DNA of 64,000 nucleotides from a virus (lineage: Duplodnaviria; Caudoviricetes). Shown here piece after piece: positions 48,864 through 50,635 of this stretch. The DNA lies in IMG/VR virus record IMGVR_UViG_3300044634_003731, positions 1,155-65,154 of that record, one strand, 5' to 3'. Positions within the stretch are counted from its first letter, which is position 1. The number at the start of each line of letters is the position of its first letter. Position numbers and translations under genes: made by a program. The notes under the pieces are model-generated. The model made no database searches and was not told the DNA's origin. It saw only the letters and a program-made list of their open reading frames with translations.

Positions 48864-50635
48864 ATGACTGCTTCAATCGCTTCACGCCGTTCTGGCGAAA
48901 ACCTCTGGGAACAATTTTGCCAGTGGGTAACTTCAACCGATAACCGTCTTTATGTTGGTTGGTTCGGTGTTCTGATGATTCCAACGCTGCTTGCTGCTGC
49001 TACTTGTTTCATCATCGCATTTATCGGTGCTCCTCCTGTAGACATTAACTAATCGGTGTCCCTTACTCGTAAGAGTATTGACGAAACTGGGTGAATTGCT
49101 GGAAACCGAAAGGTAATCAGCAGCCAAGCCTCAAGTACACTTGAGGAAGGTTCAGAGACTACCTGAGAGGTTCAGTCCCCTTAATGACAGGTTTAAGTGC
49201 CCAGCCCCTTCTATGAAGGGTGAAGATATAGTCCACACTTCACAGAGTAATCTGAAATAACCTAAGTCTTATGATATGGTTGTTTATATGAAGTTGCGAC
49301 GGGATTCGTGAACCAGTTGCTGGTTCTCTAATGTACGGAAACAATATCATCTCTGGTGCTGTTGTTCCAAGTTCAAATGCTATCGGACTTCACTTCTATC
49401 CCATCTGGGAAGCCGCTTCTCTTGATGAATGGTTGTACAATGGTGGTCCTTTCCAACTGGTTGTGTTCCACTTCCTGATTGGTATCTACTGCTATATGGG
49501 TCGTGAGTGGGAACTTTCCTACCGTCTTGGTATGCGTCCTTGGATTATGGTTGCTTACAGCGCACCTGTTGCTGCTGCATCTGCTGTATTCTTGGTCTAT
49601 CCTTTCGGTCAAGGTTCTTTCTCTGATGCGATGCCTTTGGGTATCTCTGGTACGTTCAACTATATGCTTGTGTTCCAGGCAGAGCACAACATCCTGATGC
49701 ACCCCTTCCATATGCTTGGAGTTGCTGGTGTCTTTGGTGGTTCTCTGTTCAGTGCTATGCACGGTTCGTTGGTGACTTCTTCACTGGTTCGTGAAACCAC
49801 TGAGAATGAGTCTCAGAACTATGGTTACAAGTTTGGTCAAGAAGAAGAGACATATAACATCGTTGCTGCACACGGTTATTTTGGTCGCCTTATTTTCCAA
49901 TATGCTTCCTTCAATAACTCACGTTCACTCCACTTCTTTTTAGCGGCGTGGCCCGTTGTAGGCATCTGGTTCACTGCTCTTGGTGTTTCTACGATGGCTT
50001 TTAACCTCAATCGTCGGGGTCCCGTCCTAGCAATTTGACGGTAAACTTTGGGTGAATTGCTGGAAGCCCTCCATAAATGGGTAATCAGCAGCCAAGTCCA
50101 AGACGCTTCTTGGAAAGGTTCAGAGACTAGGTGGTTTCTCAAGCGTGAGATGTAATACACCAATAGCGCCCAACATCCTAAATGGATGAAGATATAGTCC
50201 TCGCCTTAAAGATGGTAAATTTAAGGAAACAGAGTAACGGTTTCAACTTCAACCAGTCCATTATGAGTTCTGAAGGAAAGGTAATTAATACCTGGGCTGA
50301 TGTACTCAACCGAGCAGGTCTCGGAATGGAAGTGATGCACGAGCGTAGATTTGGGTGTTGCGCTCTTTAAATCGGATGAATTGCTGGAAACCCCAAGAGG
50401 GCAATCAGCATCCAAGTCCAGAGTACACTCTGGAAAGGTTCAGAGACTACCTGAGGAATAGAGTTTCCTTAATAACAGGTTTAAGCGTCCGACACCAGAA
50501 ATGGTGATGATATAGTCCAATCCTGGTAGTAATACCAGACAACCAAAGGAATAAAAGAATGCCCATAATTTTCCTTTGGACCTTGCATCTGTTGAAGCAA
50601 CTCCTGTTGCCTTGACTGCACCGACCATCGGGTGA
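48864..50635 (+). CDS. psbA: photosystem II D1, spliced join(48864..49045,49297..50007,50235..50346,50558..50635), 360 aa
   Basis: Exons restore [37 protein letters not shown]; 1083 nt in total. Confidence 0.96.
49046..49296 (+). mobile_element. group I intron 1 in psbA (251 nt, ORF-less)
   Basis: Exon ends in U and pairs with IGS GTGTC; core AATTGCTGGAA, AATCAGCAG, GTTCAGAGACT, AAGATATAGTCC; ends in G. Confidence 0.92.
50008..50234 (+). mobile_element. group I intron 2 in psbA (227 nt, ORF-less)
   Basis: Exon ACCU pairs with GGGT; same P/Q/R/S core; ends in G. Confidence 0.92.
50347..50557 (+). mobile_element. group I intron 3 in psbA (211 nt, ORF-less)
   Basis: Exon GAGCGU pairs with GCGCTC; same core; ends in G; inserted at ER|NAH. 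Confidence 0.93.

Follow-up and report, generated by a model that had tools for sequence, protein, structure and literature searches.

The window analyzed here is a 64-kb stretch of IMG/VR virus record IMGVR_UViG_3300044634_003731, a 65-kb record classed as a fragment with a CheckV completeness of 32. On its + strand, at positions 48864–50635, lies a psbA gene that is split into four exons by three group I introns lacking open reading frames (ORFs). Exon 1 (48864–49045) holds codons 1–60 and two nucleotides (nt) of codon 61, and is followed by intron 1 (49046–49296, 251 nt), which is inserted after nt 182 of the coding sequence, or nt 179 in standard D1 numbering. Exon 2 (49297–50007) ends at intron 2 (50008–50234, 227 nt), after nt 893 (standard nt 890), and exon 3 (50235–50346) ends at intron 3 (50347–50557, 211 nt), which separates codons 335 and 336 (standard R334|N335) at the site occupied in phage S-PM2. 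Exon 4 (50558–50635) carries the stop codon. Introns 1 and 2 each fall after the second base of a codon, namely the Ile codon of VDI|DG and the Leu codon of FNL|NG, and intron 3 lies between codons, at ER|NAH. Joining the exons gives an open coding sequence of 1083 nt for a 360-aa D1 plus stop. An initial annotation of this DNA had described ORF-less introns of 251, 227, and 211 nt whose removal leaves exactly such a protein, and its coordinates and lengths proved exact. The spliced D1 is 93% identical to that of S-PM2 over residues 1–336, and its residue numbering is offset by +1 when exon 1 is aligned with solved D1 chains. No sense-frame ORF of 80 aa or more was found in any of the three introns. 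The reading frame of the preceding exon is closed by a stop codon after 7, 31, and 24 nt of introns 1, 2, and 3, respectively (ORF ends 49052, 50038, and 50370). Because of these early stops, unspliced RNA would be unable to yield D1. The G+C content is 47% in the psbA exons, 43–45% in the introns, and 35.4% in the whole window.

All three introns match the Rfam group I model RF00028 over its full length, with 77.3, 83.6, and 83.5 bits for introns 1, 2, and 3, respectively (gathering score 50), and this model gave no further group I match in the 64-kb window. The last base of every 5′ exon is T, and the last base of every intron is G. A guide sequence lies 10–14 nt from the start of each intron and is complementary to the end of that intron's own 5′ exon, with a G opposite the splice-site U. 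The resulting P1 helices are GACAU/GUGUC in intron 1 (5 base pairs, bp), ACCU/GGGU in intron 2 (4 bp plus one intron pair), and GAGCGU/GCGCUC in intron 3 (6 bp). The U-G pair at the 5′ splice site, the individual guide, and the terminal G listed in the initial annotation are therefore present in all three. As a control over all mapped introns, P1 pairing averaged 5.9 bp with the intron's own 5′ exon vs 3.45 bp with exons of other sites. The catalytic cores had also been called near-identical. Invariant columns of the alignment do mark core blocks conserved in all three introns, but the likeness is confined to these blocks, and full-length identity among the three is 61.9–63.2%. In the Rfam alignments, the introns carry an insertion of ~35–50 nt between P7 and P3′. 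Extra helices P7.1/P7.2 at that position are the criterion for subgroup IA, to which algal psbA introns are assigned.

For comparison, we searched IMG/VR for contigs in which the start of exon 2, 3, or 4 lies at the expected distance after the conserved block GATATAGTC, and obtained 10, 50, and 101 contigs, respectively. Spliced translation was used to locate the splice sites of 157 loci (IMG/VR, 154; GenBank, 3; designated by L numbers), all chosen for having an intron. BLAST pieces of <60% identity, which represent psbD, were excluded from site mapping. An intron occupies nt 182 in 15 of the 157 loci, nt 893 in 43, nt 1005 in 87, nt 1011 in 18, and nt 1014 in 4. In total, 18 distinct psbA sites obey the U...G rule, which is kept at every main-site intron. 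The three window introns are 94–96% identical to introns at the same sites of other IMG/VR contigs and at most 69–74% identical to any intron from another site. Intron 1, for example, is 96.4% identical to its counterparts in L009 and L016, and intron 2 is 95.2% identical to that of L051. A FastTree phylogeny of 108 unique ORF-less introns (from 174, after excluding those of >320 nt or failing the U...G rule), midpoint-rooted and read without regard to support values, clusters introns mainly by site. The window introns fall inside the site-182 group, the site-893 group, and the S-PM2-type site-1005 group. By these comparisons, the three introns are separate site-specific lineages. Recent duplication of one intron within the gene was considered as another origin and is ruled out by the identities together with the tree.

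The initial annotation had termed introns 1 and 2 extra. This holds relative to S-PM2 and S-RSM88, but neither intron is unique, as their sites are occupied in the 15 and 43 loci counted above. The window's combination of sites 182, 893, and 1005 was not repeated among the 157 loci, and each of the pairs 182+893, 182+1005, and 893+1005 was found in other loci. Among 82 full-length genes, likewise intron-selected, 44 have one intron, 25 have two, 11 have three, one has four, and one has six. Site mapping undercounts closely spaced introns: L008, with six mapped introns, has eight separate RF00028 matches (about 6800–11200) in a single IMG/VR psbA. Some "long introns" are therefore two introns with a tiny exon between them or a nested arrangement. 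L009 likewise has two adjacent ribozyme matches (1630–2131) in one mapped insert of 1135 nt. Three of the sites are clustered within 9 nt: 1005 at ER|NA (87 loci), 1011 at NA|HN (18 loci), and 1014 at AH|NF (4 loci). In the tallied full-length genes and the listed partial loci, site-1011 introns always occur together with a site-893 intron. Three scans for uninterrupted sites each gave at least 120 matches. Among the matches listed, the full-length genes were intron-free in 66 of 68, 70 of 72, and 69 of 69 cases, counts that leave out loci of the intron set (three such loci stood in the first 80 rows of one scan). Intron-bearing psbA is thus the minority among the matches listed. A scan for the site-893 intron in 185,579 prokaryote species genomes gave a sole match, L326, a 1.7-kb (1680 bases) contig in a Flavobacteriaceae metagenome-assembled genome, which is most likely a mis-binned piece of cyanophage.

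Folding with covariation covered the site-893 and site-182 lineages, and RNAalifold recovered P1 in both alignments. In the site-893 alignment (28 introns), 20 of 53 predicted pairs show compensatory changes and hardly any pair is broken; in the site-182 alignment (7 introns), 15 of 73 do, again with very few pairs disrupted. These changes are good indirect evidence that the RNAs of both lineages must fold, and so splice. Judging from the alignments, the structure of site-893 and site-182 introns is under selection. The site-893 introns are also mosaic. In columns 100–170 of the 28-sequence alignment, some carry the P6-to-P3′ module of window introns 1 and 3 (CCTGAGG...TAATAACAGG type), and window intron 2 and other site-893 introns carry a different one. 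This pattern suggests recombination between introns of different sites.

Among deposited phages, none matches ≥80% of the region, and blastn against 50,697 phage records did not find introns at the sites of introns 1 and 2. Weak blastn matches to the intron cores were found in introns of Alteromonas, Klebsiella, crAss-like, and other phages. The closest known arrangement is that of S-PM2, which was said in the initial annotation to have a single ~212-nt psbA intron at the ER|NAH site of intron 3. The claim stands: S-PM2 and S-RSM88 each have one psbA intron at this site, 94% identical to intron 3 over 182 nt, and the S-PM2 intron measures 212 nt vs 211 nt in the window. Like the window, S-PM2 has the F-CphI gene (81% identical) directly downstream of psbA, followed by psbD. 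S-PM2 is marine, however, and has one intron, whereas the window comes from lake water and has two more. The freshwater phage S-SRM01 also resembles the window, with three psbA group I introns by our mapping, one of them at ER|NAH, and an F-CphI-type gene downstream. Its other sites are 279 (with an HNH ORF) and 753 rather than 182 and 893, and its site-1005 intron, of 207 nt, belongs to another clade. The paper describing S-SRM01 mentions only "partial psbA genes" and one likely intron (PMC8557907). S-CBWM1 has a multi-intron psbA as well, for which GenBank annotates two group I introns, at sites 652 (with an endonuclease ORF inside) and 1014 (AH|NF), neither of which is shared with the window. 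Because S-CBWM1 and S-SRM01 have several introns, multi-intron phage psbA is already on record.

The introns in the td, nrdB, and sunY genes of T4 are likewise small and self-splicing, lie in conserved genes, and are mobilized by homing endonucleases. T4 has three introns in three genes, whereas the window has three in one gene, all ORF-less. A 2010 survey of marine metagenomes reportedly found introns to be "widespread," according to the passage of Puxty 2018 that cites it. Our literature search, with the site list of Millard 2010 outside its range, found no account of phage psbA introns at codons 60 or 297, nor of LAGLIDADG introns in phage psbA. The window thus belongs to a known kind, the intron-bearing cyanophage psbA with homing endonucleases, and its combination of sites is absent from the searched literature.

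Directly relevant to the introns is the gene that follows psbA, an F-CphI-type free-standing homing endonuclease of 142 aa (50703–51131, + strand; Pfam Endonuclease_7, E 2e-26), which is 81% identical to S-PM2 F-CphI over all 142 aa. F-CphI, likewise a free-standing homing endonuclease, cleaves psbA when it is intron-less, and the S-PM2 intron blocks F-CphI cleavage of its own gene, a process termed "collaborative homing" (PMC6083498). No second homologue of any psbA-linked endonuclease was found in the 64-kb window, where two of the three introns are thus without a partner endonuclease. We divided the endonuclease genes of the comparison set into class A, ≥70% identical to that of the window (64 loci), and class B, a second EndoVII-type clade downstream of psbA that is 41–46% identical to class A (29 loci, including L019, L023, and L029). 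In all 53 scorable loci, the class-A gene adjoins a site-1005 intron, and it never adjoins an uninterrupted site. Of 25 scorable class-B loci, 24 have a site-893 intron beside the endonuclease gene; apart from the window, such an intron was found in 0 of 44 scorable class-A loci. In 109 loci with both sites intact, there was no match to class A, class B, or any other F-CphI-related endonuclease. No ORF-bearing form of the site-893 intron was present among its 43 loci. Read from this co-occurrence, class B and the site-893 intron would form a second collaborative pair, with class B as a candidate new cleavage specificity. On this reading, the window carries intron 2 without the enzyme.

Intron 1 has a different set of relatives. 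Six loci have an intron of 716–723 nt at site 182 with an ORF of 150–164 aa matching LAGLIDADG_3. Nucleotides 1–189 and 209–251 of intron 1 align to the two ends of these long forms (the first ~190 and last ~43 nt) at 82–91% identity, and the long forms differ from it by a ~480-nt ORF-bearing block in the 3′ stem-loop. This alignment marks intron 1 as an endonuclease-less version of a mobile LAGLIDADG-bearing intron. A further arrangement was seen in L024 (3336–3854, − strand), where an Endonuclease_7 ORF of 173 aa lies in a 687-nt insert mapped at psbA nt 1026. Here the F-CphI-type gene appears to be inside an intron, not beside psbA.

We also examined public sequencing runs for the gene. At least half of its sampled words are present in nine public runs, labelled lake water or freshwater. 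Contigs of two lake-water DNA runs from two studies, one of which may be the source sample, were compared to the locus, and all six exon/intron junctions are covered by zero-mismatch contigs. A single 506-nt contig with zero mismatches runs from the end of exon 2 through the whole of intron 2 and exon 3 into the start of intron 3, and another contig spans intron 3 into the downstream endonuclease gene. The intron-split psbA DNA is real. Intron sequence is also present in two metatranscriptome runs: a 151-nt contig lies wholly within intron 2 and shows zero differences, and RNA contigs cross both borders of intron 1, with exon 1 and with exon 2.

From the anatomy, lineages, co-occurrence, and covariation, we infer splicing, cleavage specificities, and protection, and give a probability of about 70% to stepwise capture of three selfish introns that splice from the RNA and shield the DNA from three different endonucleases. 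The source would be an uncultured freshwater T4-like cyanophage. Each intron would fold into a group I core, pair its guide with the end of its own 5′ exon, and excise itself. With all three spliced, the mRNA would encode a normal 360-aa D1, and an unspliced copy would stop within a few codons of intron. The introns would have been gained singly, through homing and recombination in co-infections. Each would occupy, and so destroy, the target of a homing endonuclease circulating in related phages. Intron 3 would partner the downstream F-CphI-type gene and split the enzyme's target, which would prevent self-cutting. Intron 1 is the version of a LAGLIDADG-carrying intron that has no endonuclease, and the intron 2 lineage elsewhere accompanies a different EndoVII-type free-standing endonuclease, which is lacking here. 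A putative immunity to several homing endonucleases, as the initial annotation had proposed, fits the comparative data.

Several observations weigh against stepwise capture and protection. No single contig of the two DNA runs joins intron 1 to intron 2, and the conserved middle of exon 2 (49709–49885) is covered only by contigs carrying differences. Because zero-mismatch cover stops there, it is the IMG/VR assembly that places intron 1 on the same molecule as introns 2 and 3. RNA contigs join exons across introns 1 and 2, at or close to the predicted junctions, but these contigs are 90–95% alike, with sides of 21–24 nt and differences at the junction. One of these joints has CTC where this allele would give CTT, and they may come from intron-less relatives or hosts. 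Site 893 is uninterrupted in one of the 25 scorable class-B loci, and in two class-B loci the sole intron is at site 1005. Shared ancestry may explain why endonuclease class and intron go together, a pattern drawn from loci selected for introns.

The same data can be read without present-day protection. The introns could be neutral leftovers of homing, or of co-conversion with flanking exon DNA, that persist because they splice. ORF-less introns are the expected late stage of a homing cycle, and a partner endonuclease is missing from the window for two of the three. However, compensatory changes maintain ribozyme pairing in the site-893 and site-182 lineages, and because related contigs often carry endonuclease genes of the classes in question, exposure to the enzymes is likely. 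We consider neutral persistence unlikely. Alternatively, the introns could be kept mainly as a control device, with splicing efficiency, for example in response to light, tuning the phage's D1 output. Light-regulated splicing of Chlamydomonas psbA introns has been noted in a paper, intron 3 is 94% identical to the S-PM2 intron, and every intron holds an early in-frame stop. Yet intron presence or absence is patchy among close relatives and tracks endonuclease genes, not habitat or clade, and 66 of 68 full-length genes among the uninterrupted-site matches listed carry no intron. A regulatory role as the main reason for retention is, to us, distinctly improbable.

Two further explanations question the locus itself. 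An assembly chimera, in which psbA pieces from different co-occurring phage genotypes were joined, would fit a metagenome-assembled fragment with a CheckV completeness of 32. It would agree with the lack of a zero-mismatch contig bridging 49709–49885 in the two DNA runs and with a three-site combination seen in no other locus of 157. Against this, every junction is covered by zero-mismatch contigs from two runs and two studies, one contig connects introns 2 and 3 and another reaches from intron 3 into the endonuclease gene, nine runs contain at least half of the stretch's sampled words, and all three site pairs exist in other loci. A chimera is very unlikely. Splicing of this allele was not observed in the two metatranscriptome runs, as would be expected if at least one intron no longer spliced and psbA were a pseudogene. 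A dead gene is nevertheless hard to reconcile with an uninterrupted 360-aa D1 that aligns end-to-end with S-PM2 D1 at 93% and to solved D1 chains, or with the core blocks, P1 pairing, and terminal G kept in all three introns, and we give it almost no credence.

The locus also raises the question whether introns are exchanged between the psbA genes of phages and chloroplasts. Residue 60 of the window D1 corresponds to residue 59 in the solved D1 chains of cyanobacteria, Chlamydomonas, and plants. Window D1 numbering is therefore standard plus one residue, and window nucleotide positions are standard plus 3. Ten group I introns are reported in Oedogonium cardiacum psbA, at sites 179, 276, 384, 408, 525, 548, 570, 645, 754, and 898 (PMC2442088 Table 4); this algal numbering is relative to Mesostigma and was taken as equal to standard. 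The intron at site 179, Oc.psbA.1, is an IA1 intron with a LAGLIDADG ORF in L9 (PMC2442088). Mapped against phage and chloroplast introns, as the initial annotation had advised, intron 3 falls on the S-PM2 site and intron 1 (window nt 182 − 3 = 179) on that of Oc.psbA.1, which bears out the suggestion made there that intron 1 matches a green-algal chloroplast site. Oc.psbA.1 and the long phage site-182 forms both have a LAGLIDADG ORF in the 3′ loop, whereas window intron 1 is ORF-less. Phage sites 279, 551, 573, and 648 likewise equal Oedogonium 276, 548, 570, and 645. Sites 890 and 1002 are absent from the 12 distinct sites of Oedogonium and Floydiella (PMC2442088, PMC2997540 Table 4), with other algal lists outside the comparison. 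A protein search with the phage LAGLIDADG ORF gave 101 matches, all to unnamed metagenome proteins and none to a named algal one, and a look-up of protein clusters likewise yielded no named algal match.

The site-179 intron and its LAGLIDADG gene may be one mobile element found in both cyanophages and Oedogonium-type chloroplasts, and the same may apply at 276, 548, 570, and 645. More broadly, and only tentatively, phage psbA could be a battleground shared with green-algal chloroplasts, with the class-B enzyme and its intron as a second pair near nt 890 and the window's gene as a three-intron recombinant. If true, introns would have been transferred between phage and plastid copies of psbA, and one of the three stacked protective introns would counter an enzyme that the window phage does not carry.

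The window offers a clean case of intron stacking within a single auxiliary metabolic gene. Across the comparison set, phage psbA has no fewer than 18 insertion sites, and one gene can hold as many as eight ribozyme cores. Endonuclease classes that track sites make "collaborative homing" testable at a second site. The introns also bear on surveys of the gene. A widely used degenerate psbA primer pair encodes VDIDGIREP and MHERNAHNFP (PMC5083919 Table 1), and introns are said to cause psbA diversity to be underestimated (PMC5083919). In the window, the VDIDGIREP site is split by intron 1 and the MHERNAHNFP site by intron 3. Neither primer matches the window's genomic DNA with up to 3 mismatches allowed, and both match the spliced sequence exactly. 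Because both primer sites are split, this allele would be invisible to DNA-based surveys and not just mis-sized; the initial annotation, which expected such alleles to be missed or mis-sized in amplicon surveys, understated the effect for the standard pair. Gene callers break such alleles into "partial psbA" pieces, as with S-SRM01.

Around the gene, tail-fibre-like and 2-oxoglutarate (2OG)-oxygenase-like genes lie upstream, and an uninterrupted psbD (D2; 51323–52384, + strand), a transaldolase gene, and a 6-phosphogluconate dehydrogenase gene lie downstream. Judged by these predicted genes, the content is the usual T4-like cyanophage make-up. A sigma-70-like promoter match, TTGACA-17-TATGAT, occurs at 48664–48692 (+ strand; 11/12 positions and a TG extension). 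The match is to the consensus alone, with 5 such sites observed in the region vs 6.6 expected in shuffles. The psbA leader contains a PhotoRC-II RNA motif at 48731–48824 (+ strand; RF01717, 80.6 bits, cut-off 39), which is also found upstream of psbA in L001, L008, L009, L032, and L063. After the psbA stop, reading of the sequence gives a G+C-rich hairpin followed by a T run on the + strand (50647–50664, strand unassigned), and a scan places the stem on the − strand. A second promoter-like match, TTGACT-18-TATAAT (11/12), lies at 50612–50641 in the last psbA exon and points toward the endonuclease gene, with the terminator-like hairpin standing between the two. A glutamine riboswitch (RF01739, 46.7 bits) was found at 88–140 on the − strand of L063, a cyanophage contig with an intron-bearing psbA. 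Finally, the window carries 25 tRNA genes in a dense + strand array at 16777–20983 (Rfam RF00005).

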